From Verrucomicrobiales bacterium (lineage in GTDB: Bacteria; Verrucomicrobiota; Verrucomicrobiia; Limisphaerales; F1-12-MAGs170), in contig SXMN01000316.1 in the NCBI GenBank assembly GCA_005777315.1, forward strand, positions 208-64,207: 64,000 nucleotides of DNA. The letters are read 5' to 3'. This document shows positions 20,369-63,070 of the stretch, in pieces; position 1 is the stretch's first letter, and every line of letters begins with the position of its first letter. The translations under genes and the position numbers were made by a program. Below the pieces are notes generated by a model that saw only the letters and a program-made list of their open reading frames with translations, was not told the DNA's origin and searched no databases.

Positions 20369-21157
20369 CTACTCGTTACCGCCGCCAACATCCGGCTTCA
20401 GCCAGGGTGTTCCCGCATAGTACCATTTGGAGGCCTTAAGTGTTTCAACATGTGAATCGGCGAACGCCACATTGCTTTTTTCCACATGTCGCAGATGCGG
20501 ACCACCCCAATTGGGATCGCCTGCAGAAATTACGCAACCGGTGCATGGATCGTCCTTGGCCGGGTCATGAACAATCCAGCAGCCGGGTTTCTCCGGGGAT
20601 TTTACGGTTACGCACACATTGGGATCCTTCGAATTCTTCGGCTGCGTTCCGCCATCGGTGAGATAGACCGTGGTGGACGGGCTGCGAATATCGCTGTCGC
20701 GAAGTTGCTTCCAGACGCTCTTGTCCCACGTATCGGGCCAGTCACAACCGCCGAGGCGGAAATTGGCGCTGTAGTTCGAAATCGCCTTGTCCTGCTGGTC
20801 GCTCGGGTAAAGGGCGAGCGCCTCCTTGAATTTCTTCGTCTTGCTCGGGCAGAGGATGAGGTTCGTCGTCTGCTGATAAGGCTGGAGGAAATTGAACCAT
20901 GCCTTGCGGGTGACGTTGGCCCCGCGCACCTGGAAGGTGAACGCGTAACGCCCGCCATGGTCGTCCCCGTAAACACGCGAGGCGATGCTCATCTGGCGCA
21001 AATTGCTCATGCAATTGGCCGACTTGGCCTTCTCCTTCGCTTTCGAAAGCGCCGGCAGCAGCATGCCGGCGAGGATCGCGATGATGGCGATGACGACAAG
21101 GAGCTCGATAAGCGTAAAGCCGCGTGAGCAAGCGCGGTGGCGGAGAGAGAGGGGCAT
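20369..21157 (-). CDS. prepilin-type N-terminal cleavage/methylation domain protein, H-X9-DG (DUF1559-like) family
   Basis: N-terminus [43 protein letters not shown] and C-terminal [10 protein letters not shown]. Confidence 0.85.
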
Positions 21158-21271: not shown

Positions 21272-21445
21272 ATGTCGGTGCATCTGAAAATTGTCGGTGG
21301 AGCGCTGACATGTGCTGCAAGCCAGTCGCAGCAGTATCAATGGCTCGCTCTCACGCCGAACCTGCTGCGGCTGGTGCTGCGCACACAGCCGCGCTCCTGG
21401 CCGACAGCCAAGTTCACCGACAACTTGTGGATGTACTGCTTGATG
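21272..21445 (+). repeat. structured ~170-nt repeat, copy 1 (rod-like imperfect hairpin)
   Basis: Near-identical to 28077-28250. The inner 13-bp stem pairs CCAGTCGCAGCAG (21322-21334) with CTGCTGCGGCTGG (21362-21374). The outer arms pair GTGCATC..TTGTCGGTG with CACCGACAA..GATGTAC. Confidence 0.7.
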
Positions 21446-28076: not shown

Positions 28077-28250
28077 TGCATCGGTGCATCCACAAGTCGG
28101 TGGAGCGCGACTGTGCTGAAAGCCAGTCGCAGCAGTAACGGTGGCTCGCCCTCACGCCAAACCTGCTGCGGCTGGTGCTGCGCACACAACCGCGCTCCTG
28201 GCCGACAGCCAGGTTCACCGCCAACTTGTGGATGCACTGCTGCTGCATCG
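28077..28250 (+). repeat. structured ~170-nt repeat, copy 2
   Basis: Same element as 21272-21445. The outer stem pairs GTGCATCCACAAGT with ACTTGTGGATGCAC (14 bp perfect). P2 pairs GGAGCGCG with CGCGCTCC. The inner 13-bp stem is identical to copy 1. Confidence 0.7.
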
Positions 28251-30637: not shown

Positions 30638-31870
30638 TCAATTGCCCACCGCGCGGTAGAACGACGCAGACTTCACCGTCGTGTCGGTGTCCTCAAAAAC
30701 CGTGTTGCCCGACGCATCCATTGTCACCGGACCAAGGGCGCTCCAATTCAAGCTGGGCACTTTGTTTGCCCGTTGAAGTGTGTAGATTTTTCCAGCGGTC
30801 CCGGAGAGGCGGAATTCAGGATTACCGTTCGGCAACAGCCGGTAATTCGTGAATTTTGCTGGAACCAACTGGACGGTGCCAGCCGGGTCGGTGGTTTTGA
30901 GGGGGAATGTTGTGCTGCGCTGCACCGCTCCATAGCCAGCCATTTGCGGAACATCGGTGACAGAGTTGTAGAAACTCAGACCGAAGACAAGAATCCCGAT
31001 GTTGGTCGATCCAGAATGGAAATGCTTCGTGGGAATCACGATGGAAGTGGCCGTGGGATCGAGTGTCCGGGGCACGCAGGAATTTGGCGCCATGAAAATG
31101 AGATTCCCTCTATCGTCGGTGATGATGAGTGTGATGTACGCGCCCGGGCCTTGCGGGGTGAAGGGATTCCATTTCAACGTAAAATCAGCGGCTGCATCGA
31201 TGGCTTGCGCTTCGTCGTAGTTGTTGATTCTCGGGATGGCGGTGGGGACGGCGGGCATCACCATTGAGACAATGCGCTCTGGTTGTCCCGTTTGATTGAA
31301 GCGCATGGTGTAGGTGCCTTCGGGGTAGGCCCCATCCAGTTCCGCTTCGGTGTTGTAAGCTCCATGAAGGCTGATGACTGCCACCTGGCCTGTGAGATTT
31401 GTTTTTGTTCCCGATGGCAATGTCAGCGAACCGTCGGTGACGGATGGTCCGGCGGGTGGACTTTGCACTGCGGAGCTAAAGATTGCCGGCTTGTCGGATT
31501 GAGGCACCACCGTATCGGCGGAAGTCTGGCGGTGTCCGATGAGCTTCGTGACGGAGTATGACCCCAGCGTGGGTGGTGTAGTAGGAAGGCAGATCTCACT
31601 CTGGGGGCCTCCAGGGCTGGAGGTCGCTTTGATGGAGAATGCGGTGATGCGTTGAACAAAGCCGTTGCCGCTCATCTGCGGCACGTCGGTCGTGGAGCGG
31701 TAGAAATTCGAGCCGACCAGGAGCTGGGCCAGATAGCCGAACCCCGGGCGCAGATAATTCGCCGGAATCACCACGGACGTTGCGTTTGGTTCGAGCGTTC
31801 GAGGAACGCATACATTGGGCGCCGAGAATATCCTGTTTCCGAATTCATCGGATATGATGAGTCTGACCAC
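30638..31870 (-). CDS. C-terminal part of a frameshift-split Ig-repeat surface protein
   Basis: The repeated module ...GxYTMRFNQTGQPERxxxMxxPAxPxxIPxIxNYxEAQAIDAxxDFTLxWN...CVPRTLxPxATSxVIP occurs in this ORF and continues from ORF 31845..32918 in another frame. It ends with the ...SASFYRAVGN tail. Confidence 0.7.
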   Translation of the reverse strand: MVRLIISDEFGNRIFSAPNVCVPRTLEPNATSVVIPANYLRPGFGYLAQLLVGSNFYRSTTDVPQMSGNGFVQRITAFSIKATSSPGGPQSEICLPTTPPTLGSYSVTKLIGHRQTSADTVVPQSDKPAIFSSAVQSPPAGPSVTDGSLTLPSGTKTNLTGQVAVISLHGAYNTEAELDGAYPEGTYTMRFNQTGQPERIVSMVMPAVPTAIPRINNYDEAQAIDAAADFTLKWNPFTPQGPGAYITLIITDDRGNLIFMAPNSCVPRTLDPTATSIVIPTKHFHSGSTNIGILVFGLSFYNSVTDVPQMAGYGAVQRSTTFPLKTTDPAGTVQLVPAKFTNYRLLPNGNPEFRLSGTAGKIYTLQRANKVPSLNWSALGPVTMDASGNTVFEDTDTTVKSASFYRAVGN

Positions 31871-32822
31871 GGCTTCCCCGCCTGTTACGGAAAAAGAGTT
31901 CCATCGCAGTGTGAAATCCTTCGTCGCATCGATCGCTTGCGCCTCGGCATAATTCGCGATCTTGGGGACGACACCCGGGGGGGGCGGGCAGATTCATCGG
32001 GATGACGCGTTCGGGTTCGCCCGTCTGAGTGAAGCGCAAGGTGTAGCTGCCTTGGGGACGGGCCGCCTCCACTGCCGCCTCCGAGGTATACGTTTCGATC
32101 AACCTGAAGACGCCGAATTGGAACGCGAGATTCTTCGTCGTCCCGTCCGGGACTGTTATCGCGCCGCCCGTCACAGCCGGGCCGGCGGGCGGGTTCTGTA
32201 TGGTAACTCCGAAGATTGCGGTGGTGCCCACCGCGGGAACCGGGTCATTGGCCGAGGTCTGGCTGTATTGAAAGTTCTTTGTCACGACGTAAGTGCCCGG
32301 CGCCGGTGTCACCGGAGGACAAACTTCATTCGGACTACCACCTGAATTGATGGCGATCTTGAAACTGCCGGTGATGGTCTCCAGCGGCTGGCCCGAAGCG
32401 CTTTTGATGGGAACCTTCGTCCCCGCCGGATTGAGTGTCCAGGTGATGGCCGTGTTGAGCGCGATGGCGAGGCCAGGCTGGAATGTGAGGATCCGCCGAT
32501 CCGCGCCCCAACGGCCGGTGAACTGCGTGTTCACGAAAGCGGGTGTGAACTGATAATTACCGATGACAACCGTTGAAACAGTAGCCTGCAATGGAGTGGT
32601 GATATCCATGGCCTGATCGAATTCGAAGACGACCGTGCCCTTCGGGGCGGCGTTGGTATCGCCGTCGGCCGGGGAGACTGACACAAGCTTTGGCGCGTTC
32701 TGCGCAAGCAGGACGTTCGTTGCCGTCAGCGCGCAAAGAGCGATTGCGGCTCGAAGAAGATACAGGACTCCGCGGACAAGCCGGGAGATAGAGGACAGGC
32801 GTTCGCCTTGGTGGTGATTCAT
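31845..32822 (-). CDS. N-terminal part of the same frameshift-split Ig-repeat surface protein
   Basis: The signal peptide starts at the internal Met (MNHHQGERLSSISRLVRGVLYLLRAAIALCALTA). It has a Big-like SVSPADGDTNAAPKGTVVFEFDQAMD domain. The frame is lost in the C8 run (plus-strand G8 at 31977-31984). Confidence 0.7.
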   Translation of the reverse strand: MNHHQGERLSSISRLVRGVLYLLRAAIALCALTATNVLLAQNAPKLVSVSPADGDTNAAPKGTVVFEFDQAMDITTPLQATVSTVVIGNYQFTPAFVNTQFTGRWGADRRILTFQPGLAIALNTAITWTLNPAGTKVPIKSASGQPLETITGSFKIAINSGGSPNEVCPPVTPAPGTYVVTKNFQYSQTSANDPVPAVGTTAIFGVTIQNPPAGPAVTGGAITVPDGTTKNLAFQFGVFRLIETYTSEAAVEAARPQGSYTLRFTQTGEPERVIPMNLPAPPGCRPQDRELCRGASDRCDEGFHTAMELFFRNRRGSRGQTHHIR

Positions 32823-33053
32823 GAGCTGGTAATTAGTCGAGCGGCGCTCGAACTTCAATGATTCCTTGGGTGGGTTGTCAGCGACGCAGAGTGCTTCGTC
32901 AACATTTTTGAACGACACAAGATTTCGGTCATCAAGGGAACCGTTCCTTCACAAGCGGTGGAAGAAATCCAGCCCGGCGATATCGCGCTGTGGAATTATT
33001 CTTTAGTAGTTGTCAGATGCGGAAAGACGGCTATCCCATGGAAACCACACCCT

Positions 33054-33818
33054 ATGAAACGACCCATTCCAGCGGGCTTGGCCTTTACCTTGATCGAACT
33101 GCTCGTGGTGATCGCCATCATCGCCATTCTTGCGGGCATGTTGTTGCCGGCGCTCGGACGCGCGAAGGAAAAGGGCAGGACGATCCGGTGCAACAGCAAC
33201 TTGCACCAGCATGCCTTGGGCTTTGCCATGTATGCGGACGACAACCAGGACTTCTATCCCGCCTACGAGGATTGGGCCACGTTGGGTGGCACCACCGGAA
33301 GAATGACGCTTGCCGGCGGCCGCGTTCCCAAAGAGAGGCGTCCCATGAACACCTACGTACCGGCAGCGGAAGCCTGGCATTGCCCTTCAGATAAAGGCGA
33401 CTCTCTCTGGAAAACCATGTTCACGTCCGAGTTCAAGAGCGCCTTTCCGTCAGGACGCCAGAGCAGTTGCTACGAGGCTTACGGCAACAGTTACCTGACG
33501 CCTTGGTCGGTGGAGACACTGCGCATCCAGCACGTCACGGGCAACTCGAAGGCCGCGAAAGGAACTCCGGAAGCGACCCCCATGAAAGCGGGCGAGATTG
33601 GGAAAAGCCCTTCCAACAAACTCGTCTCCGGCGACTGGCCTACGTGGGCTGACCGGGACAAAAAGGACACGTGGAGTCAATGGCACAACGTGAAGGGACA
33701 GTACCGTTTCAACATGCTATTCGGCGATGGCCATACCGAGTTTTTCCAATTTCCTGACGAGGCTTACAAGTGGAACTACACGGGGCCGAAACCGGACCCG
33801 AACTACAAGTGGTGGTAG
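33054..33818 (+). CDS. prepilin-type N-terminal cleavage/methylation domain protein, H-X9-DG family
   Basis: [52 protein letters not shown] and C-terminal LFGDGHTEF. The internal Met start is preferred. Confidence 0.85.
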
Positions 33819-36256: not shown

Positions 36257-36472
36257 ATGAGCACCGTGGCTGAAATCAAAACAGCATTCAAACGACTTCC
36301 TGAATCCGATCGCTCGAAACTCGCCGAATGGATTCGGGAAAGCGTGGAAGAACCGGACCCGAAACTGGAGGCGGCCCTGCGTCATTCGTTACGCAGTCCG
36401 CTGAAAAGATACAAACCCGGCCACTTCGCCGCGCTGGCATCGCGCAACCGCCGTCGCGCAAACGCCGCGTGA
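36257..36472 (+). CDS. putative antitoxin (addiction-module component-like) of a ParE pair
   Basis: 71 aa. MSTVAEIKTAFKRLPESDRSKLAEWIRESV resembles the small addiction module component family. Its stop overlaps the GTG start of the ParE-like gene (GTGA at 36469-36472). Confidence 0.55.
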   Translation: MSTVAEIKTAFKRLPESDRSKLAEWIRESVEEPDPKLEAALRHSLRSPLKRYKPGHFAALASRNRRRANAA

Positions 36473-36795
36473 AGGCGGTGGAAGTCTTCGTCCGTCACGA
36501 TGCCGAGTTGGACGCGTTCGGTTATTTCCAGCGCATCTTCGAACACAATTCGGACGCCGCACTCCGCTTTCTCAAAGCCGTGGATCAAACGGTGGAAAAT
36601 CTGGCGTTGCATCCGCTTAAAGGCAGACTGCGACATTTTCGCGGGCGCGATTTGAAGCACGTCCGCTCATGGCGGGTGGATGATTTTGAAGACTATCTGA
36701 TATTCTATCGGTTTACCGAGCCACATTTAGAAATCCTCCGGGTCAAGCATGGCGCAATGAATTTTCCTGCCGCGTTGCGGCGTTTGCCCGATTGA
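36469..36795 (+). CDS. parE: ParE/RelE-superfamily toxin
   Basis: VKAVEVFVRHDAELDAFGYFQRIFEHNSDAALRFLKAVDQTVENLALHPLKGRL...DYLIFYRFTEPHLEILRVKHGAMN is the typical ParE pattern. The GTG start is coupled to the upstream small ORF. Confidence 0.75.
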   Translation: MKAVEVFVRHDAELDAFGYFQRIFEHNSDAALRFLKAVDQTVENLALHPLKGRLRHFRGRDLKHVRSWRVDDFEDYLIFYRFTEPHLEILRVKHGAMNFPAALRRLPD

Positions 36796-36904
36796 AGGGT
36801 GGTTTGGCGTTGATCGGGTTGAAGCAGTCTTCTCAGGGCTGATTAAGCCTTGTTCGAGGGTGGCGGGCCAACTACCTTTCAGCCATCAGCAGGGTCATTG
36901 TCGC

Positions 36905-45439: not shown

Positions 45440-45611
45440 TTTTTAGTACTCAATGAGTCGGTTACAGCACACCATTAAAGAAAGAAAGCCCTGTTCCTGG
45501 AACCTCGCCGTTGAAAGCATTACGACTACAGCTTCTCGGTGAACCACTTCTTGCAGGCTGACATTGGGAATTCGCTTGCTCATCAACCGCACCGTCCGCC
45601 AAATCATCAAC

Positions 45612-46874
45612 ATGCGCGCTCACCTTATCCTCACCACAATTTTTGCGTTCTACTTCATTCATGCCGCTGGTGCCGATTGGTCCCAGTTTCGTGGCCCCGG
45701 CGGTTCCGGCATCAGCGAGGTCAAAGGCACCCCGCTTCGCTGGAGCGACACCCGGGGCATCGTTTGGAAGACCGATCTGCCCGGGCCAGGAGCGTCCAGT
45801 CCCGTCGTCATCGGCAACCGGATTTTTCTCACCTGTTACACCGGCTTCGGCCCCGGCATCACGGGTGGCAACATGCAGTCGCTCAAACGGCACCTGCTCT
45901 GCCTCGACCGGACGAATGGCAAGCTGCTTTGGAACACACCGGTGGCCGCCGACCTGCCCGAGCAGGAGGGTATCCGCGAAGACCATGGCTACGCGACAAG
46001 CACACCGGTGTCGGATGCTGAACGTGTGTATGTCTTCTTCGGAAAATCCGGCGTGTTCGCCTTCAACCACGACGGCAGCCAGCTCTGGAATACCAAGGTG
46101 GGATCTGAGTTAAACGGCTGGGGTTCCGCCACCTCGCCGGTGCTTCACAGCGAACTTTTAATCATCAATGCCAGCGTCGAGAGCAGTTCTCTTGTGGCCC
46201 TTGACCGGAAAACTGGGCGGGAAGTGTGGCGAGCAAAAGGTGTCAGCGAATCGTGGCACGCCCCGGCGTTGGTCACTGCGCCGGGAGGAAAGACCGAGGT
46301 GGTTGCAGCAATGAGCAAGCGCGTGCTGGGTTTCGATGCCGACACCGGGGCGCAGTTGTGGAATTGCGATACAGGCATCTCCTGGTACATGTGCCCGACA
46401 CCGGTGGTTCGGGATGGAATCGTGTATCTCATTGGAGGCCGCGGTCCGACGGTTACGATGGCGATTCGCGCCGGCGGTCGAAGCGATGTGAACGCGTCGC
46501 ACGTGCTCTGGAAAACCGGCAAAGGGTCGAACGTCCCTTCTCCCATTTTGCACGAGGGCCATCTCTATTTCGCCCACGAAAACCTGGGCATCGCGCTCTG
46601 TGTCAATGCCACGACCGGCGAAGTGGTTTACGAGGAACGCCTTTCCCCGAGCCCTGGACAGATCTACGCCTCGCCCGTGCTTTCGGACAACCGGATTCAC
46701 TACCTCGGACGGGGCGGCAGGTCGGTGGTGATCGAGGCGTCACCTAAATTGAAAGTCCTCGCCGAGAACACTCTCGAAGGAGGACGCGGAGTCTTTAACG
46801 CCAGTCCCGCATTCGATGGCAGGCGATTGCTTATCCGATCGAATCGCGCGCTCTACTGCCTCGGGGAGGAGTAG
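45612..46874 (+). CDS. PQQ-like beta-propeller repeat protein, secreted
   Basis: Signal MRAHLILTTIFAFYFIHAAGADWSQFRGPGGSG. Repeated ..G..LW.. blades (KLLWNTPV, GSQLWNTKV, GREVWRAKG, GAQLWNCDT) are as in BamB/PQQ-propeller proteins. Confidence 0.75.
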   Translation: MRAHLILTTIFAFYFIHAAGADWSQFRGPGGSGISEVKGTPLRWSDTRGIVWKTDLPGPGASSPVVIGNRIFLTCYTGFGPGITGGNMQSLKRHLLCLDRTNGKLLWNTPVAADLPEQEGIREDHGYATSTPVSDAERVYVFFGKSGVFAFNHDGSQLWNTKVGSELNGWGSATSPVLHSELLIINASVESSSLVALDRKTGREVWRAKGVSESWHAPALVTAPGGKTEVVAAMSKRVLGFDADTGAQLWNCDTGISWYMCPTPVVRDGIVYLIGGRGPTVTMAIRAGGRSDVNASHVLWKTGKGSNVPSPILHEGHLYFAHENLGIALCVNATTGEVVYEERLSPSPGQIYASPVLSDNRIHYLGRGGRSVVIEASPKLKVLAENTLEGGRGVFNASPAFDGRRLLIRSNRALYCLGEE

Positions 46875-47069
46875 TTTCCGGGGGGGGAGTGGTCTGGACC
46901 TGGTGGCGATGCGGGAGAGCCGTCCCGTTCCGATACATCATGACAAAGGTCGGACACGGGCTTCAAACGCACCGCGTGGTGGACCGCGTGCCGGGCTTGT
47001 ATTTTCGGGTTCATGCCAGACTCCTTGTCGCAGCCTTGGAGTTGGCATGTGATTCGCATCGTGCGCCGC

Positions 47070-49460
47070 ATGACGAAGTTTCTTGGCCAGCTCCTCGGCT
47101 TGACATGCCTGTTTTTGGTTCAACTCACCGAAGTGCATGCCGTTTCGAGTCCGTTGCCCCATCCGGTTCTGTATGTGACGCAGGTGCCGCAACCAGCCGA
47201 CTTCACGACCATCGGAGCGCTGTTTGGGAATCATCGAGGCTCCATTCAAAGCGCGCCACGCGGCGGAGCGCTTTGGATCAGGCATCCTGACGGGAGCATT
47301 CGCAATCTCACCAAGGCAGCAGGTTTCGGTGTGGAGGGGGCGCAGCACAGCAGCGGGATCGCCGTTCGGGAACCGGCCATTCACTGGAGCGGCACGAAAG
47401 CCGTCTTCAGCATGGTCGTAGGCGCGCCAGATCGCCGTTATCAGGTGAAGGGGTTCTATTGGCAGCTTTACGAAATCACGAACTTCCTCGAAGCAAACTC
47501 AACTCCGATCATCACGAAAGTTCAGAACCAGCCATCGAACTACAACAACGTGGCGCCCTGCTACGGCACGGACGACCGGATCATCTTCGCTTCGGATCGG
47601 CCGCGCGACGGCCGGCGGCATCTCTATCCACAGCTCGATGAGTACGAAGAAGCGCCGGTTGTCACAGGGTTGTGGAATCTTGATCCAGCAACCGGTGATT
47701 TATTCCTGATGAACCACTCGCCCTCAGGCGTGTTCTCACCGAGCGTGGACAGTTTTGGAAGGGTCGTATTCGTGCGATGGGATCATCTGCAACGTGATCA
47801 ACAGGCCGACTCGGACGGCGCGAACGGCAGCTCCTACGGCACATTCAACTATTCAAGCGAAGCTCCGGATGCGCTGGTTCTCGCGAACAACCGGTCGGAA
47901 ATTTTCCCCGAGCCGCGACAGACTTCCAGCACAGCGAATGGCCACACGTTCAACCATTTCTTCCCCTGGCAGATCAATGAGGATGGAACGGAGGAGGAAA
48001 CATTGAACCATCTTGGCCGCCATGAGCTGGGCGGGAGCTATCGCACCGCTTCGTTCAACAACGATCCGAACATTCGCGAACTCTACTATTTCGGAAACAA
48101 GTTCAACACGAACACGCTGAACAATTTCATTCACCTGCGGGAATCGCCGGTCACTCCTGGGCTTTACTTCGGCATCGATTCGCCAGAGTTCGGCACGCAC
48201 AGCGCGGGGCAGGTGGTCGCGTTGGATTCGCACATCTCGACAAACGCTGATTTGTGCAAATTGCACTACTACACACACCGCGACACCGCCCATGCGAATG
48301 AGTCGCCGGGCGCGACTCATTCCGGCCTTTACCGCAATCCGCTTCCACTCAGCGATGGGCGCGTTGCAGTGATCCACACAGCCGAGACAAGGCAGGATCA
48401 GAACTCTGGCAGCAGCACAGCACCTAAATCGCGTTATGATTTCCGCCTCAAGTTTCTCGTGAAGGCGAACGGGGTTTGGACAGCGGGTGAAACGCTGACG
48501 CCAGGAATCAACGCAAGCGTGAGCTGGTGGTCGCCGGACGAACTCGTCACCTACAACGGGCCGCTTTGGGAACTCGATCCGGTCGAGGTCCGCCCGCGCA
48601 TCCGCCCCGCCCGTATCAATTCGCACGTTGCGGGTCCGGAGCTGGATGTCTTTTCCGAGGAAGGCGTGGATGTGGCAACCGTTCGCGAATTCCTTCGATC
48701 CAGGAACCTCGCATTGATCGTCAGTCGCGATGTGACCACACGTGATGCCGGAGATAAGATCCAGCCCTATAATCTCCGGGTGCCTGGTGGCACACAGACG
48801 ACCGGGACATCAGGAAAAATCTACGACATTGCACACCTTCAGCTTTATCAGGCTGACTTGATTCGCGGCATCGGAATGTACGCTGGCAAAGGCACGCCGC
48901 GCGACGGCCGTCGAGTCCTCGCCCAGCGGATGCATGATCCCGCCGTCGTCAACAATCCGCCCAATCCTGACGGACCGGAGGCCAGCGTGCGCATCTCTGC
49001 GGACGGTTCGGTGGCAGCGTTCGTGCCGGCACGGCGTGCCATGAGCTGGCAGACGACCGCACCCGATGGAACGCCGGTGGTCCGCGAGCGTTACTGGATC
49101 ACGTTTCAGCCGGGAGAAATCCGCGCGTGCCCAAGCTGCCACGGCGTGAACACACGCGACCAGGCCGGGCGTGGCATTCCCATGAACAAACCGCTGGCGT
49201 TGCGCGATCTGCTGCGACAATGGAAAACACAAAATCAGCCCGACTCAGTGCGGATCATTTCCGGCGGAATCGCTGCTGGCGCGTTTCGTTTGAACGTGGT
49301 TGGCAGAGCCGGTGTGCCAAACGTGATCGAATCGACAACTGACTTCTCCAATTGGACGCCAATCAATACAAACACACCCTCCAGCCCGGGTGCCTACTTC
49401 TTCGACGATTCTTCATTTGGCGCACAGCCTCAGCAGTTCTATCGCTTCCGCCTGAAATGA
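47070..49460 (+). CDS. large secreted protein with C-terminal CxxCH motif and ...FYR tail, unknown function
   Basis: Signal MTKFLGQLLGLTCLFLVQLTEVHA at the internal Met. Beta-rich, with a CPSCHG heme-c-type motif near residue 700 and the tail FSNWTPINT...QQFYRFRLK. Confidence 0.6.
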   Translation: MTKFLGQLLGLTCLFLVQLTEVHAVSSPLPHPVLYVTQVPQPADFTTIGALFGNHRGSIQSAPRGGALWIRHPDGSIRNLTKAAGFGVEGAQHSSGIAVREPAIHWSGTKAVFSMVVGAPDRRYQVKGFYWQLYEITNFLEANSTPIITKVQNQPSNYNNVAPCYGTDDRIIFASDRPRDGRRHLYPQLDEYEEAPVVTGLWNLDPATGDLFLMNHSPSGVFSPSVDSFGRVVFVRWDHLQRDQQADSDGANGSSYGTFNYSSEAPDALVLANNRSEIFPEPRQTSSTANGHTFNHFFPWQINEDGTEEETLNHLGRHELGGSYRTASFNNDPNIRELYYFGNKFNTNTLNNFIHLRESPVTPGLYFGIDSPEFGTHSAGQVVALDSHISTNADLCKLHYYTHRDTAHANESPGATHSGLYRNPLPLSDGRVAVIHTAETRQDQNSGSSTAPKSRYDFRLKFLVKANGVWTAGETLTPGINASVSWWSPDELVTYNGPLWELDPVEVRPRIRPARINSHVAGPELDVFSEEGVDVATVREFLRSRNLALIVSRDVTTRDAGDKIQPYNLRVPGGTQTTGTSGKIYDIAHLQLYQADLIRGIGMYAGKGTPRDGRRVLAQRMHDPAVVNNPPNPDGPEASVRISADGSVAAFVPARRAMSWQTTAPDGTPVVRERYWITFQPGEIRACPSCHGVNTRDQAGRGIPMNKPLALRDLLRQWKTQNQPDSVRIISGGIAAGAFRLNVVGRAGVPNVIESTTDFSNWTPINTNTPSSPGAYFFDDSSFGAQPQQFYRFRLK

Positions 49461-49611: not shown

Positions 49612-50066
49612 ATGACAAACAACTCTCCTTTGCTCATCAAAGACAGTGTGAAAGACGGCGTGGACTTCGAGAGCAGCCCATCAAGACTCACGGAAATCCA
49701 GCAGTGGTCGAGTGGCTGGAGAGGGAGCAAGCGGACTGTTTCACCAGCACGGTTGTGATTGCTCAAATCGCCTACTGGATTCGCACCAAAGAAGGATGCG
49801 CCCGTCAACGGTTGCAGGACTGGCTGGCTGAATCTGTGGAAGCTCTTGAAGGAAGGATTCTGTCTTTCAACACAGCGACAGCTCACGTCTGGGCAAACCA
49901 AAAGATCCTGCCTGAAAAGAGCGGGAAGCTCATGTCGGTCGAGGACAGTTATATCGCCGCCACGGCCCGCCGTCACAACCTGACGATTGTGACCGGAAAC
50001 GATGCCGATTTCCGCCGGCCCGGATTGAAGGTCTTCAATCCATTCAAGGAACTGCCTGAGACTTGA
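49612..50066 (+). pseudogene. PIN-domain (VapC/FitB-like) toxin remnant, frame-disrupted, no antitoxin
   Basis: GTG-ORF 49704..50066 encodes the C-terminal two thirds of a PIN toxin (VVEWLERE...FTSTVVIAQIAYWI...SVEDSYIAATARRHNLTIVTGNDADF). The N-terminal part (ATG 49612, MTNNSPLLIKDSVKD...) is in another frame and lacks the usual LDTNV acidic motif. Confidence 0.55.
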
Positions 50067-50232
50067 ACAGTATTGATTCGCTTCGATGACACGACAGGCG
50101 GCCTTCGCATCAAGAGTTACTTGCGCGTCCGGGTCACGCAGGACGCGTGTGATTCGAATTCTTCAGGTTTTTGCCATTGACGGTCAGGAGGCGTTCGACG
50201 CAATCATCCGGCTGACCCGGCTAAACTCGTTT

Positions 50233-54560: not shown

Positions 54561-55319
54561 ATGAAACCCTCCAAACTCCTCAGGGCATTCACACTCATCG
54601 AACTGCTCGTTGTGATTGCCATCATCGCTATCCTGGCGGGCATGTTGCTCCCGGCACTCTCACGAGCGAAGTTCCGCGCAAAAGTTGTGAACTGCACCTC
54701 GAATTACCGCCAGTGGGGAATCGCGGTGAACTTGTATGCGGTGGACGATACCCGTGGCCGGCTCCCAGCCTTCAAAATGCCGCGAACAGGTTTGAATCCT
54801 TGGGACGTCTCGCTCGACATGGCGCCAAAGCTCGAGCCCTACGGCTTGACGGTGCCAATGTGGTACTGCCCAACCCGGCCCTGGGATTTCGCGGACGCGC
54901 AAAAGTGGTTTTCGACTCAGAAGAAGGGCGAGCAACTGCGCACAATCCAGGACTTGAACAAGTATTTCGTCCGGCAGTACGCCAACTTCGCCATCATCTG
55001 GCATTGCTGGTGGGTGCCTCGTCAGCTTGATGACGGCACCATGTTTCCGACACCCACCACTTCCGGCACGTTCACTCGCACCAAGGATGGGTGGCCCACA
55101 CGTCTGGAGGATCCAGTGGCCTCGCTCCAGCCGGTGATTACTGATCTATGCCTGGCATCAGGCACCAGAACCACCAATGTCGCCAGCGCGCAAGGAGGGC
55201 ATCCCATCGGAAACAAGCCTCAAAGCGTGAACCTCGCCTTCGCCGACGGCCATGTTGAATCGCGCAACTTCAAGCAGATTCAGTGGCAGCAGTCGGGCAA
55301 CTGGACCACATTCTATTGA
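54561..55319 (+). CDS. prepilin-type N-terminal cleavage/methylation domain protein, H-X9-DG family
   Basis: [51 protein letters not shown] and C-terminal [14 protein letters not shown]. Confidence 0.85.
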
Positions 55320-59851: not shown

Positions 59852-60118
59852 ATGACGATCACACTGACAGCCGAGCAGGAAAAATTCATCGCGGAACAAG
59901 TGGGCAGCGGCCATTACCACTCCACTGCGGATGTCATCGCACAAAGCCTCGGCATGTTGCGGGCACAGGAGGAATTCGTCCGCTCAAACGCAGCCGAATT
60001 GCGCGAGAAAATCGCCAGCGGCATGGAACAAATCCGTCGCGGCGAGGTCGTGGACGGGAAAACAGCCATCAAAAATCTCCGAGAGAAGCTGGGCCAGCGC
60101 GAACGCAGCGCGCGATGA
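59852..60118 (+). CDS. parD: ParD-type (RHH/COG3609) antitoxin
   Basis: MTITLTAEQEKFIAEQVGSGHYHSTADVIAQSLGMLRAQEEF...LREKIASGMEQIRRGEVVDG is the canonical ParD pattern. Its stop overlaps the ParE ATG (ATGA at 60115-60118). Confidence 0.8.
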   Translation: MTITLTAEQEKFIAEQVGSGHYHSTADVIAQSLGMLRAQEEFVRSNAAELREKIASGMEQIRRGEVVDGKTAIKNLREKLGQRERSAR

Positions 60119-60408
60119 GTTCGTATCGCTATTCAGCGGATGCCAACGCTGACATCGAGGAGATAGTCTTCTACATTTTCGACCTCAACCCGGTCGCCGC
60201 GCATCATTTTCTCACTGCGCTGGAAGAAGCTTGTGAATTGCTGGCCGCGCATCCTCTCATGGGGAGGCCACGCCCGGGATTTGGCGAAGGCCTGCGTTCG
60301 TTTTCTATTGGGAACTATTTGATCTTCTACATCCCGGCACCACATGGGATTGACGTTTCTCGCATCATCTATGGCGGTCGTGATTTGCCTAAAATGTTCA
60401 GCCGGTGA
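60115..60408 (+). CDS. parE: ParE toxin
   Basis: MSSYRYSADANADIEEIVFYIFDLNPVAAHHFLTALEEACELLAAHPLMGRPR...NYLIFYIPAPHGIDVSRIIYGGRDL is the canonical ParE pattern. Confidence 0.85.
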   Translation: MSSYRYSADANADIEEIVFYIFDLNPVAAHHFLTALEEACELLAAHPLMGRPRPGFGEGLRSFSIGNYLIFYIPAPHGIDVSRIIYGGRDLPKMFSR

Positions 60409-60431
60409 AAATTCCACCCTTGAAGGGGTCC

Positions 60432-60655
60432 TGAAGGGGCCGGTCAATAGCTTTGATAACTACGCCCTCATTTGTTGGTTCTCCCCCTCTTGAGGCAAGC
60501 TTCGAGTGGAGTGCCCCTCGATGGAATCTGGAATCCCTGAACACTAAGCCTCCTGGTCTCCGGGTTTATTTGATTGGAATTCTGACGCCAAGCTGCGAAG
60601 AGCGTCCCAGTTGTCCTGCGAGTCCGCACTTTGGAGATTTCGCGGTGAAATAAAT
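60432..60655 (+). repeat. TA-array repeat R2
   Basis: Starts 24 nt after the ParE stop. It has the same ordered blocks as R1 and its 3' end, TTGGAGATTTCGCGGTGAAATAA, is shared with R5. Confidence 0.8.
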
Positions 60656-60667
60656 GAGTCACGACCG

Positions 60668-60822
60668 CCCTCATCCCGGCCTTCTCCCCAAGGAGAAGGA
60701 GAACCGTTCGCCGCCTCGCTCGAAAACCAGCGACTGTGCCGACCAAACGGCCACCCCCATGACCAGAGACGGACCATTGCTGTTCCTTCTCCCTGGGGGG
60801 AGAAGGTCAGGATGAGGGCGAG
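60668..60822. repeat. 155-bp hairpin/MITE-like element with 24-bp terminal inverted repeats, each arm also a local hairpin
   Basis: CGCCCTCATCCCGGCCTTCTCCCC (60668-60691) versus GGGGAGAAGGTCAGGATGAGGGCG (60799-60822). Local hairpins pair CCTTCTCC with GGAGAAGG at 60682-60701 and 60787-60808. Confidence 0.7.
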
Positions 60823-60860
60823 TGTTGAAACCGTTTTGAATCGTCTTAACTTTTTCCTGC

Positions 60861-61067
60861 CGGTCAATAGTTCCGAACTCTTAACCGCATTTGCTCGTTC
60901 CCCGCTTGTGCCTTGGGCTTCAAACCGAATGCCGCATGATGAAATCTGGAAACCCTGAAGTCTGAACGAATTCTCCTCCTGCCCTCCGGGTTCTTATTGC
61001 TTGGACTTCTGATGACGAGCCGAAGAGAGATTACCAGCTATTTCAGAGCCTTGGCGTTGAATTCCTC
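60861..61067 (+). repeat. TA-array repeat R3
   Basis: GCCGGTCAATAGTT...GATGAAATCTGGAAACCCTGAAG...CTGCCCTCCGGGTT...CCTTGGCGTTGAATTCC. It ends 20 nt before the MazF stop at 61087. Confidence 0.8.
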
Positions 61068-61086
61068 GCCGCGCCCTTTTACAGCG

Positions 61087-61398
61087 TCAAAGTTGCAGCC
61101 AGTTTCGCAATCGTTGGTCGAGAGTCTGACAGTCAGCGGCAGTGAGCGTGCCGACGATCTTTACGACCAATCTTTCTTCCACTGTGGAGACTTGAGCCTT
61201 GATGCCGGATGGGACGTTCAATCCAGCCGCGCGCCATTCCTTGACTGGAAAGTCCGTGTTGGGAAGCACCGAGGAAATGGGAACGAGAAACAGATCCGCT
61301 CCATTGCGGCCAATGACTATGGCAGGGCGTACCTTGCGGCTGGTCAAGTCCGTGAACGGAATCGGCAGGAGAACGACGTCATTTCTTGAGCAGTTCAT
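61087..61398 (-). CDS. MazF/PemK-family toxin
   Basis: RNDVVLLPIPFTDLTSRKVRPAIVIGRNGADLFLVPISS...GLNVPSGIKAQVSTVEERLVVKIVGTLTAADCQTLDQRL is the PemK pattern. The internal Met (MNCSRND) is preferred. Confidence 0.8.
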   Translation of the reverse strand: MNCSRNDVVLLPIPFTDLTSRKVRPAIVIGRNGADLFLVPISSVLPNTDFPVKEWRAAGLNVPSGIKAQVSTVEERLVVKIVGTLTAADCQTLDQRLRNWLQL

Positions 61399-61582
61399 TG
61401 AAGACGTCATCCGCTTGGTTGTCCCAAACTTTCGTCAAAGATTCCTCGGAGAGTTTGAGCCACGCCTCGCGCGCCGGGTCGGATTCGATGGTCACGCGCA
61501 CGTGGGATCTTTCAGGAAGCGACAGCGGTCGCGGCAACATGAGTTTTCCGTCCTCGTAGATGGCGTCAATTGTCGTTGTCAT
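61379..61582 (-). CDS. DUF104 (AF2212-like) antitoxin
   Basis: MTTTIDAIYEDGKLMLPRPLSLPERSHVRVTIE is the characteristic DUF104 N-terminus. It overlaps the downstream MazF gene by about 20 nt. Confidence 0.7.
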   Translation of the reverse strand: MTTTIDAIYEDGKLMLPRPLSLPERSHVRVTIESDPAREAWLKLSEESLTKVWDNQADDVFNELLKK

Positions 61583-61591
61583 GGCCTAAAA

Positions 61592-61876
61592 TTATCTTTC
61601 CCAACTTGGTTTGCAAGGCGCGTCTCCCGTCATTCCCGTGACTTCTTGGCGCTTGGGGCGAATGAAGCTGTCCACCGCCATACGCCCACGCGTGAAGTCG
61701 GTGTTCGCGAGTGGAACGGAGTAACCATCGGAACGCGCCCGGCTCGTAATCTGACAAAGCACCAAGTCATCGCCCGCAAGATCAGCAACGACCAGCGCGG
61801 GACGGCGTTTGCCGGATTGGAGGTTGGTTTGCGGAAAAGGGAGAACGACGACTTCGCCGACTACAGGCTTGCCCAT
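61592..61876 (-). CDS. MazF/PemK-like toxin (C-terminus atypical)
   Basis: MGKPVVGEVVVLPFPQTNLQSGKRRPALVVADLAGDDLVLCQITSRARSDGYSVPL...DSFIRPKR is the PemK pattern. The last ~20 aa do not look like the family, whereas an alternative frame does. Confidence 0.65.
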   Translation of the reverse strand: MGKPVVGEVVVLPFPQTNLQSGKRRPALVVADLAGDDLVLCQITSRARSDGYSVPLANTDFTRGRMAVDSFIRPKRQEVTGMTGDAPCKPSWER

Positions 61877-62064
61877 GCAGTGTCCTCCACGGGCGTGTTC
61901 CAATCCTTCGCGAGCGCGGATTTGCTCAACAGCAGGCCGTTGAAAGACTCGTCCTCGTTCTTAAGTCGCAGGAAGCGCGCGAAGTCATAGACCTCATAGA
62001 CCTCGCGCTGCAATGGTTCGAGCATAGCGGCTACTTCTTTTTTGATCAACTCGCATGTGCTCAC
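61861..62064 (-). CDS. DUF2281-like antitoxin
   Basis: (V)STCELIKKEVAAMLEPLQREVYEVYDFARFLRLKNE...ALAKDWNTPVEDTAWASL. The EV.DF..FL motif and the WxxPEED..W tail are typical. GTG start at 62064 (alternative ATG 62025). It overlaps the toxin start by 16 nt. Confidence 0.6.
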   Translation of the reverse strand: MSTCELIKKEVAAMLEPLQREVYEVYDFARFLRLKNEDESFNGLLLSKSALAKDWNTPVEDTAWASL

Positions 62065-62120
62065 GGCGGCAACGTATCGAGTTGACCGGGGTCTGGTAAG
62101 ACTGCTGCCGTTCAGGAAGT

Positions 62121-62330
62121 GTGAAAGTTGGTCAGTAATTTCGACCTTCGGCCGCATTGGTTGGACCGCCCGCTGCGGGCCCCATGCTTCGAGTGGAATG
62201 CCGCCATATCGAATCTGGCATCTCTGAAGCCTGAGCGAAATCATTTCCTGCCCTCCGGGTTAATTGATTGGAATTTTGACGCAAAGCCGCGAAGAGCTTT
62301 CCAGTTTTCCCCGCGGCTCGTTGCTTGATT
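62121..62330 (+). repeat. TA-array repeat R4
   Basis: GTTGGTCAGTAAT...CGAGTGGAATGCCGCC...GAATCTGGCATCTCTGAAG...CTGCCCTCCGGGTTAATTGATTGGAATTTTGACGCAAAGCCGCGAAGAGCTTTCCAGTTTTCC. Confidence 0.8.
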
Positions 62331-62376
62331 CAAAACCCCGCTTGCCAGCGTATCGCAACGCCGCTAATTTTTGTCC

Positions 62377-62562
62377 ATGAGCGCGGTAGAAATCCTTGCC
62401 GAACTGCCCAAGCTAACCAGCGAGGAGCGTTCCGTGGTCCGCCGGCGGCTGCGCGAGCTTGACGAGCGGGACGAACTGCAATTCCTCCACGAGTCCGCCG
62501 ACGCGATGTTCCAAGACCTGGACATACAGGATGCCAAGAATGCCCGCCGCGAAACCCGGTGA
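62377..62562 (+). CDS. small antitoxin (addiction-module component-like)
   Basis: MSAVEILAELPKLTSEERSVVRRRLRELDERDE resembles the small helical addiction module component family. It overlaps the downstream toxin gene. Confidence 0.6.
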   Translation: MSAVEILAELPKLTSEERSVVRRRLRELDERDELQFLHESADAMFQDLDIQDAKNARRETR

Positions 62563-62857
62563 AATCTGGATCGTGGACCTGGGCATGGCTGCGAAAGTCC
62601 GCCCCTGCCTGATTCTGACTCCGCAACCGCGTGGTGATGACTTGGACACCTACACCGTTGTCGCCCACACCACTGTCAGTCGCGGCAACCGCTGGGAAGT
62701 TTCAATTCCAAAGCCTTACCTGGATGCGGAAGGCGCGTTTGACGTGCAACGAATCGCCACGGTTGCGAGCGTAAAGCTGGAACGTAAACTTGGTGAGCTC
62801 ACTCGCACGGAATTGGATTCGATCCTCGACCGTCTTGCGGAACGGTTCGGGATCTGA
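62531..62857 (+). CDS. MazF/PemK-family toxin
   Basis: KPGEIWIVDLGMAAKVRPCLILTPQP...VVAHTT...FDVQRIATVASVKLERKLGELTRTELDSILDRL is the PemK pattern. The start is ATG 62531 or 62540. Confidence 0.75.
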   Translation: MPRMPAAKPGEIWIVDLGMAAKVRPCLILTPQPRGDDLDTYTVVAHTTVSRGNRWEVSIPKPYLDAEGAFDVQRIATVASVKLERKLGELTRTELDSILDRLAERFGI

Positions 62858-63070
62858 AGCCCACCCGCAGTTCCACCAAACTTTTTGGTTCTCCCGCTCG
62901 TGCCGCAGGAATTGAGCGCCGTGCCACTCAATGGAATCTGGAATCCCTGAAGAGTGAGCCAATGCTTCTTCTGCCCTCCGAGCTTGTTGATTGAAATTCT
63001 GACGCAACGCCACGAAGAGCTTTCCAGTTGTCCTGCGAGTTCGCCCCTTGGAGATATTGCGGTGAAATAA
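62853..63070 (+). repeat. TA-array repeat R5
   Basis: Begins at the MazF stop. GGTTCTCCCGCTCGTGCC...AATGGAATCTGGAATCCCTGAAG...CTGCCCTCCGAGCTTGTTGATTGAAATTCTGACGCAACGCC..GAAGAGCTTTCCAGTTGTCCTGCGAG..TTGGAGATATTGCGGTGAAATAA. Confidence 0.8.

Follow-up and report, generated by a model that had tools for sequence, protein, structure and literature searches.

Among known genes whose reading frame turns on a homopolymer are the poly-G/C contingency loci of Campylobacter jejuni, Neisseria, Haemophilus and Helicobacter, which undergo slipped-strand phase variation. A run of about eight G or C residues lies within the ORF of a surface protein, and gain or loss of a single base switches the frame. In these genes the tract is retained from strain to strain with a length that differs both among isolates and within them, and many such tracts occur per genome. 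Within the Verrucomicrobia, G8/C10 runs have been noted in envelope-related genes of Akkermansia muciniphila, for which phase variability was proposed from sequence (PMC3048395). An out-of-frame gene can also be read by recoding, as in the programmed +1 frameshift of prfB (RF2) and at CCC-C sites, where tRNA-Pro can re-pair perfectly in the +1 frame; in E. coli reporters, +1 slippage on CCC-C reaches up to ~1% against a background of <0.003% (PMC4519876). Nascent frameshift pseudogenes are marked by a single indel in a short repeat, by an intact gene in relatives, by the lack of any compensating feature and by independent indels in orthologues.

Here we analyse a split gene for a putative surface protein in a 64,000-nt stretch of DNA (hereinafter the window) from an environmental metagenome-assembled genome (MAG) of the Verrucomicrobia. 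Like the contingency genes, it carries a run of eight C in the ORF of a surface protein, and one base restores the frame; unlike them, its tract is found in one lineage only, has the same length in every assembly and lies in a window where G8 runs occur at chance level. It shares the phylum with Akkermansia muciniphila, whose tracts lie in frame in intact genes of an isolate genome, whereas the tract studied here is out of frame. As at prfB and CCC-C sites, a +1 shift would be needed and CCC-C is available, but the gene lacks the conserved site, internal Shine-Dalgarno sequence and 0-frame stop of prfB, its orthologues are read without a shift, and those that are broken are broken elsewhere. 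It resembles the nascent pseudogenes in all four features named above and differs from ordinary ones in having no downstream decay yet and in a type of lesion able to revert at an elevated rate. On balance, the C8 allele is probably a recent, fixed loss-of-function allele that arose by C7 to C8 slippage at a lineage-specific homopolymer hot spot.

Reading frames and the C8 tract

On the plus strand the site reads ACACCC GGGGGGGG CGGGCA, with the G8 run at 31977-31984, and on the coding (minus) strand CTG CCC GCC CCC CCC GGG TGT CGT, encoding L P A P P G C R. Past the tract, frame 0 continues through 45 out-of-frame codons to a TGA at 31845-31847. The features of the two frames are as follows.

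31845..32918, minus strand: upstream ORF, 357 aa from GTG 32918 (the NCBI CDS also has 357 aa), containing the signal peptide, the Big_5 domain, domain 2, a 45-codon out-of-frame tail (31845-31979) and TGA
31977..31984, minus strand: C8 homopolymer (G8 on the plus strand), site of the 1-nt insertion
30638..31978, minus strand: downstream reading frame, from PGVVPKIANY... through domains 3-6 to ...FYRAVGN and the stop codon

Removal of one C fuses the ORFs 32918→31845 and 31870→30638 into a single frame that encodes 759 aa if GTG 32918 is taken as the start and 727 aa if translation begins at ATG 32822, the latter being the likely true start. The junction of the fused ORF is ...LPAPPGVVPKIANYAEAQAIDATKDFTLRWN..., the same stretch also being given as ...NLPAPPGVVPKIANYAEAQAIDATKDFTLRWN..., and the junction peptides in the repaired frame are ...NLPAPPGVVPK... 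and VIPMNLPAPPGVVPK. A tract of C7 or C10 yields one ORF of 759 or 760 aa, and C8 leads to the stop 45 codons on. The original prediction held that the two minus-strand ORFs are halves of one secreted protein and spelled out the junction obtained from C8 less one C; both statements are borne out, the fused ORF (727 aa from ATG 32822) reading precisely as written.

The downstream frame is open from just past a stop at 31994-31996 and has no signal peptide of its own. Start calls for its ORF differ, with GTG 31870 (410 aa) in the ORF list and a product of 378 aa in the NCBI annotation. In gene coordinates, its last upstream stop occupies nt 923-925, 10 nt ahead of the tract (nt 935-942), and the stop of frame 0 lies at nt 1072. 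These two stops confine the switch of frame to a 146-nt interval. A chance G8 run inside this interval has p ~0.006 (our own arithmetic from the interval and the run counts), and the C8 tract is therefore the lesion itself and no bystander. The ancestral state of the tract would be C7, with GCC CCC CCG encoding Ala-Pro-Pro.

Across the 64-kb window G8 runs show no excess over chance, with 2 seen against 2.67 ± 1.94 in shuffled sequences. The second run (46880-46887) is intergenic: a PQQ beta-propeller gene (45564-46874) ends 5 nt before it, and an 815-aa HZS_alpha-like gene (47013-49460) has its ATG 126 nt further on. All of the assemblies compared agree on the length of this run. It is possibly a promoter-region tract, and its intergenic position rules it out as an internal control for frameshift errors.

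The split gene is divergently adjoined by one of three genes for proteins with a prepilin-type N-terminal methylation motif (32958-33818 and 54561-55319 on the plus strand, 20369-21157 on the minus strand), a type typical of Verrucomicrobia and Planctomycetes. Logan contigs stop inside this motif at ~33120, which fits a genome-wide repeat. Elsewhere in the window, an intergenic repeat of ~166 bp occurs in two copies of the same orientation and ~90% identity (21275-21440 and 28081-28241); it has no Rfam match and is possibly a small mobile element or a shared regulatory or leader sequence. By the Pfam labels of sister contigs, toxin-antitoxin-like genes lie at ~60100-62900 (three PemK_toxin matches and a ParE_toxin, with small ORFs upstream), a PIN-domain gene at ~49700-50070 and a second ParE_toxin at ~36470-36800.

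Domain architecture of the repaired protein

The split gene belongs to a conserved family and, when intact, would code for a secreted Ig-like protein of six domains; its source is a Pedosphaera-like member of the Verrucomicrobia. An AlphaFold model built with 26 homologues as input has six beta-sandwich domains (mean pLDDT 82.3), laid out as D1 (Big_5), D2-D3 (module 1), D4-D5 (module 2) and a C-terminal D6.

32703..32822, minus strand: predicted Sec signal peptide (MNHHQGERLSSISRLVRGVLYLLRAAIALCALTATNVLLA / QNAP; ...NVLLA/QNAP), hydrophobic helix 13-37 at low pLDDT in the model
32379..32702, minus strand: N-terminal bacterial Ig-like domain, by Pfam match to Big_5
31598..32327, minus strand: paralogous module 1, domains 2 and 3 (EVCPP...GPQS), by model and module alignment
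30851..31597, minus strand: paralogous module 2, domains 4 and 5 (EICLP...VPAKF), 51% identical to module 1
30638..30850, minus strand: C-terminal beta-sandwich domain (TNYRLL...FYRAVGN) and stop codon, by model

The cleavage site of the signal peptide is a prediction from the sequence pattern, and homologues share an ...A/QSAPKLVSV junction. Residues 41-148 match Pfam Big_5 (PF13205) with 34.3 bits against a cut-off of 23.6 (E 4.2e-8); the other five beta-sandwich domains match no Pfam family. Once the junction is repaired, modules 1 and 2 can be aligned over 243 aa (51% identity, E 8e-85), and the alignment runs gap-free through the junction, in agreement with the earlier claim that the repaired reading is colinear with an internal paralogous module. 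The frameshift falls in the Pro-rich D2-D3 linker, between the two domains of module 1.

Each module contains one pair of cysteines, C168/C338 and C411/C582 in the repaired protein (codons at window positions ~32319-32321, 31806-31808, 31589-31591 and 31076-31078), embedded in the motifs E-x-C-x-P and APN-x-C-V-P-R and invariant or nearly so in the 26 homologues. Each pair may form a disulfide that ties the two domains of its module together.

The N-terminal Big_5 domain and the chain of six beta-sandwiches liken the protein to surface proteins with Big_5 domains, to S-layer proteins of the multi-Ig type and to the MG-domain proteins of the alpha-2-macroglobulin group. In a Foldseek search of the PDB it matches SbsB, SbsC, Sap and the ECAM MG domains with TM-scores of 0.09-0.15, and these low scores mark the matches as generic multi-domain ones (multi-Ig, MG-domain, S-layer). 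An NCBIfam search of the repaired protein matched no model, and a PDB sequence-profile search found no solved relative beyond a weak CopC-like match on domain 1. Homology searching with the repaired protein gave 71 matches, all from Verrucomicrobia, in Pedosphaera-type MAGs and metagenomes. About 27 of the homologues are single proteins, 640-760 aa long, that cover 88% of the query or more, and the repaired protein is colinear with them.

The C8 tract across assemblies and haplotypes

The 357-aa product of the window is present in the NCBI record on a contig of 64,256 bp. We found the same locus in GCA_005800335.1 (SYFQ01000174.1), in an ENA contig, in the NCBI metagenome contig SXGS01742258.1 and in the Logan assemblies of SRR8894381 and SRR8894382. 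Every contig that spans the gene carries C8 (at least 9-10 contigs from NCBI, ENA and Logan, the last with two separate runs), and the identical truncated 357-aa product is encoded by nine contigs from these three sources. The k141_ names of the ENA contigs indicate MEGAHIT, a short-read assembler, and the sequencing platform is deduced solely from such MEGAHIT-style names. In both runs the Logan contigs cross the tract unbroken, in assemblies of a kind that pops small bubbles. A minority of cells in the population may carry C7 or C9.

Over the 58.9 kb shared with SYFQ01000174.1 (window 5108-64000), the window shows only two differences, both G/T on the coding strand, both in the split gene and 177 nt apart, one of them abutting the C8 tract.

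31976, minus strand: SNP at the first coding-strand base after the 3' end of the tract; the window has G, SYFQ01000174.1 and the Logan contigs have T
32153, minus strand: second SNP, GTC (Val) in the window and TTC (Phe) in the sister haplotype

The tract-adjacent SNP is synonymous in the repaired frame (CCG/CCT, Pro) and exchanges Gly for Trp in the broken one; at the site of the second, Phe is the commoner residue among homologues. Two random SNPs would both fall inside this 2.3-kb gene with p ~0.0015; the clustering may stem from selection on the gene, either relaxed or diversifying, or from a local hot spot of errors. Both haplotypes carry C8.

C8 is common to the two haplotypes, to no fewer than two runs and to three or more assemblers, which excludes a random assembly error, and a systematic short-read error at the 8-mer is unlikely. 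Short-read consensus errors at 8-mers are rare. Homopolymers are nevertheless classic sites of indel errors, the record is a MAG, and all of the assemblies may stem from the same few libraries, features that would suit a genome with a true C7 and an intact gene in which the extra C is a systematic miscall. Against such a miscall, different assemblers (the one used by the NCBI submitters, MEGAHIT for the ENA contigs, and Logan) recovered C8; it recurs in each of two runs and in both haplotypes, although the base next to the tract is not the same in the two; the remaining 58.9 kb is identical between records, attesting to precise assemblies; and real frameshifts outside homopolymers in orthologues make the broken state nothing unusual for this gene. 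We regard the artefact as very unlikely. The sequencing or assembly error raised in the original prediction is accordingly disfavoured by the recurrence of C8 in the sister haplotype, in the MEGAHIT assembly at ENA and in the Logan assemblies of both runs.

Orthologous loci and the origin of the broken allele

At the orthologous site, 16 loci read GCC ACT CCC GCC (ATPA), GCC TCA CCG ACG (ASPT), GCC CCG CCC GCC (APPA) and similar. The site tract is present in none of these 16 loci, and no C/G run of 7 or more occurs anywhere in their copies of the gene, the longest being a run of 6 located elsewhere. Comparison of tract length in relatives, proposed with the original prediction, thus returns no tract at all. 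From its absence in orthologues it follows that the run arose in the lineage of the window, by a Thr/Ser to Pro replacement that created C7 and then by the gain of one C.

Among 14 related loci, taken regardless of intactness, 12 have a single intact ORF across the site and two are frameshifted, an outcome at odds with the thought that orthologues might also consist of two separate ORFs. In L001 (Pedosphaera sp. Baikal-deep-G226), the closest relative with 78% aa identity and the only related locus in which the synteny of neighbouring genes is conserved, the frame is lost through a 4-bp deletion between GCC repeats at KSATG/QPLE (L001 6425-6445); in L019 it is lost through a 7-bp deletion (L019 ~2390). 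An extra protein match outside the 14 loci, P0027 of L028, has an out-of-frame N-terminus owing to a 98-bp deletion relative to L016 (L028 ~3077). Deletions of 4, 7 and 98 bp are untypical of sequencing errors. Together with that in the window, the frame-destroying indels are four independent events of four kinds, three of them irreversible. About a quarter (~20-25%) of the orthologous loci examined are independently frameshifted in a gene otherwise under strong purifying selection. These four broken loci, counted without matched control genes, suggest that the surface protein is lost recurrently among orthologues.

The break in the window is young. Compared with L001, dN/dS is 0.138 upstream and 0.147 downstream of it; compared with L002, it is 0.18 on both sides. 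The 447 downstream codons contain no second stop or indel. The even dN/dS on both sides and the lack of a second lesion indicate purifying selection through practically the whole history of the gene, and on the scale of that history the break is very recent. These values and the intact downstream half fit a fresh pseudogene and the OFF phase of a switch alike.

A phase-variable contingency locus would be a selected, reversible switch between C7 (ON) and C8 (OFF), operated by slipped-strand mispairing, so that some cells would display the surface protein and others would not; the assemblies would have caught the OFF majority. Several features speak for it: a C/G run of 8 sits in the ORF of a secreted Ig-like protein whose frame one base restores, the downstream frame is wholly intact at a dN/dS of 0.147, the tract-adjacent SNP is synonymous in the ON frame, the only two haplotype differences in 58.9 kb both fall in the split gene, and for Akkermansia, also a Verrucomicrobium, there is a sequence-based proposal of phase variation at mononucleotide repeats (PMC3048395). 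However, C8 stands in all 9-10 contigs across several assemblers, runs and haplotypes. An exact look-up in ~15 billion proteins of the full-length C7 and C10 and the truncated C6 and C9 products (both alleles, both starts) found none. A scan of JGI metagenome contigs with GATGAATCTGCCCG-N{4,14}-GGTGTCGTCCCCAAGAT, a pattern admitting near-identical strains with any tract length, gave no match. The homology search with the repaired protein listed no intact relative above 78% identity, a result to be read with the fact that the fragment clusters of the window itself are also unlisted and that self-filtering may apply. The tract is kept in none of the 16 orthologous loci, G8 runs in the window are at chance level, and the orthologues have lost their frame by irreversible deletions.

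The suggestion of slipped-strand phase variation in the original prediction has the right substrate but gains no support from the tract length, constant between assemblies, from the 16 orthologous loci, which lack the tract, or from the breaks outside homopolymers in three orthologues. As a mechanism phase variation is possible, but it is unsupported beyond the substrate, and we consider such a locus unlikely. Quite unlikely, too, is a variant with the C tract as a recently arisen contingency switch in a Verrucomicrobium living free in lake or soil, whose surface target would be under strong and fluctuating selection, from phage or grazers for instance. It would explain both the frameshifts of +1, -4, -7 and -98 bp in four lineages and the clustering of the SNPs, with selection in one lineage starting to favour a reversible lesion over irreversible ones.

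Recoding would allow the C8 gene to yield full-length protein, either because tRNA-Pro slips by +1 on CCC-C or because RNA polymerase slips within C8/G8. In frame 0 the site encodes Pro-Pro-Gly, an EF-P-dependent stalling motif. If the shift takes place on the first CCC, the product is precisely ...APPGVV..., the downstream frame is intact, and CCC-C is a documented +1 slippery sequence (PMC4519876). Yet orthologues do not share the site and have a single frame for the protein; the 20 nt before the site contain no Shine-Dalgarno-like GGAGG element, and a 0-frame stop is absent where the shift would occur, the next codon being GGG. The downstream RNA fold is no better than that of shuffled sequences (z = -0.69), an Rfam search gave no match, and the reported unprogrammed efficiency of ≤1% would supply at most a trace of full-length protein. 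Taken together, we find recoding highly improbable.

For the recent, fixed loss-of-function allele favoured here, the course of events is as follows. In the lineage of the window the linker ...LPA(T/S)PA... became ...LPAPPG..., creating GCC CCC CCG (C7). With the tract now at C8, translation runs out of frame past domain 2 and stops 45 codons on, and this null allele is the consensus in every available assembly of the population. The cell would presumably export a two-domain D1-D2 stub with a 45-aa nonsense tail, and domains 3-6, which have no signal peptide, would be either not made or not exported. Fixation may reflect a loss of the surface protein that is tolerated or favoured, as in the three orthologues with other indels. 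The undecayed downstream half and the SNP that is synonymous in the repaired frame are points against a null allele, inasmuch as they also fit a gene expressed some of the time, and the C8 allele could in principle revert to C7.

For annotation, the public CDS pair of 357 aa and 378 aa represents fragments of one frameshifted gene and not two hypothetical proteins, and a frameshift flag is warranted. The split gene is an ordinary but clean case of one Thr/Ser to Pro substitution making a mutational hot spot through which the gene is then lost. Frequent breakage combined with purifying selection is what would be expected if a surface protein were useful at some times and costly at others. If this pattern is upheld against control genes and by read-level data, it would make this uncharacterised family of the Verrucomicrobia a candidate phage receptor or predation target.
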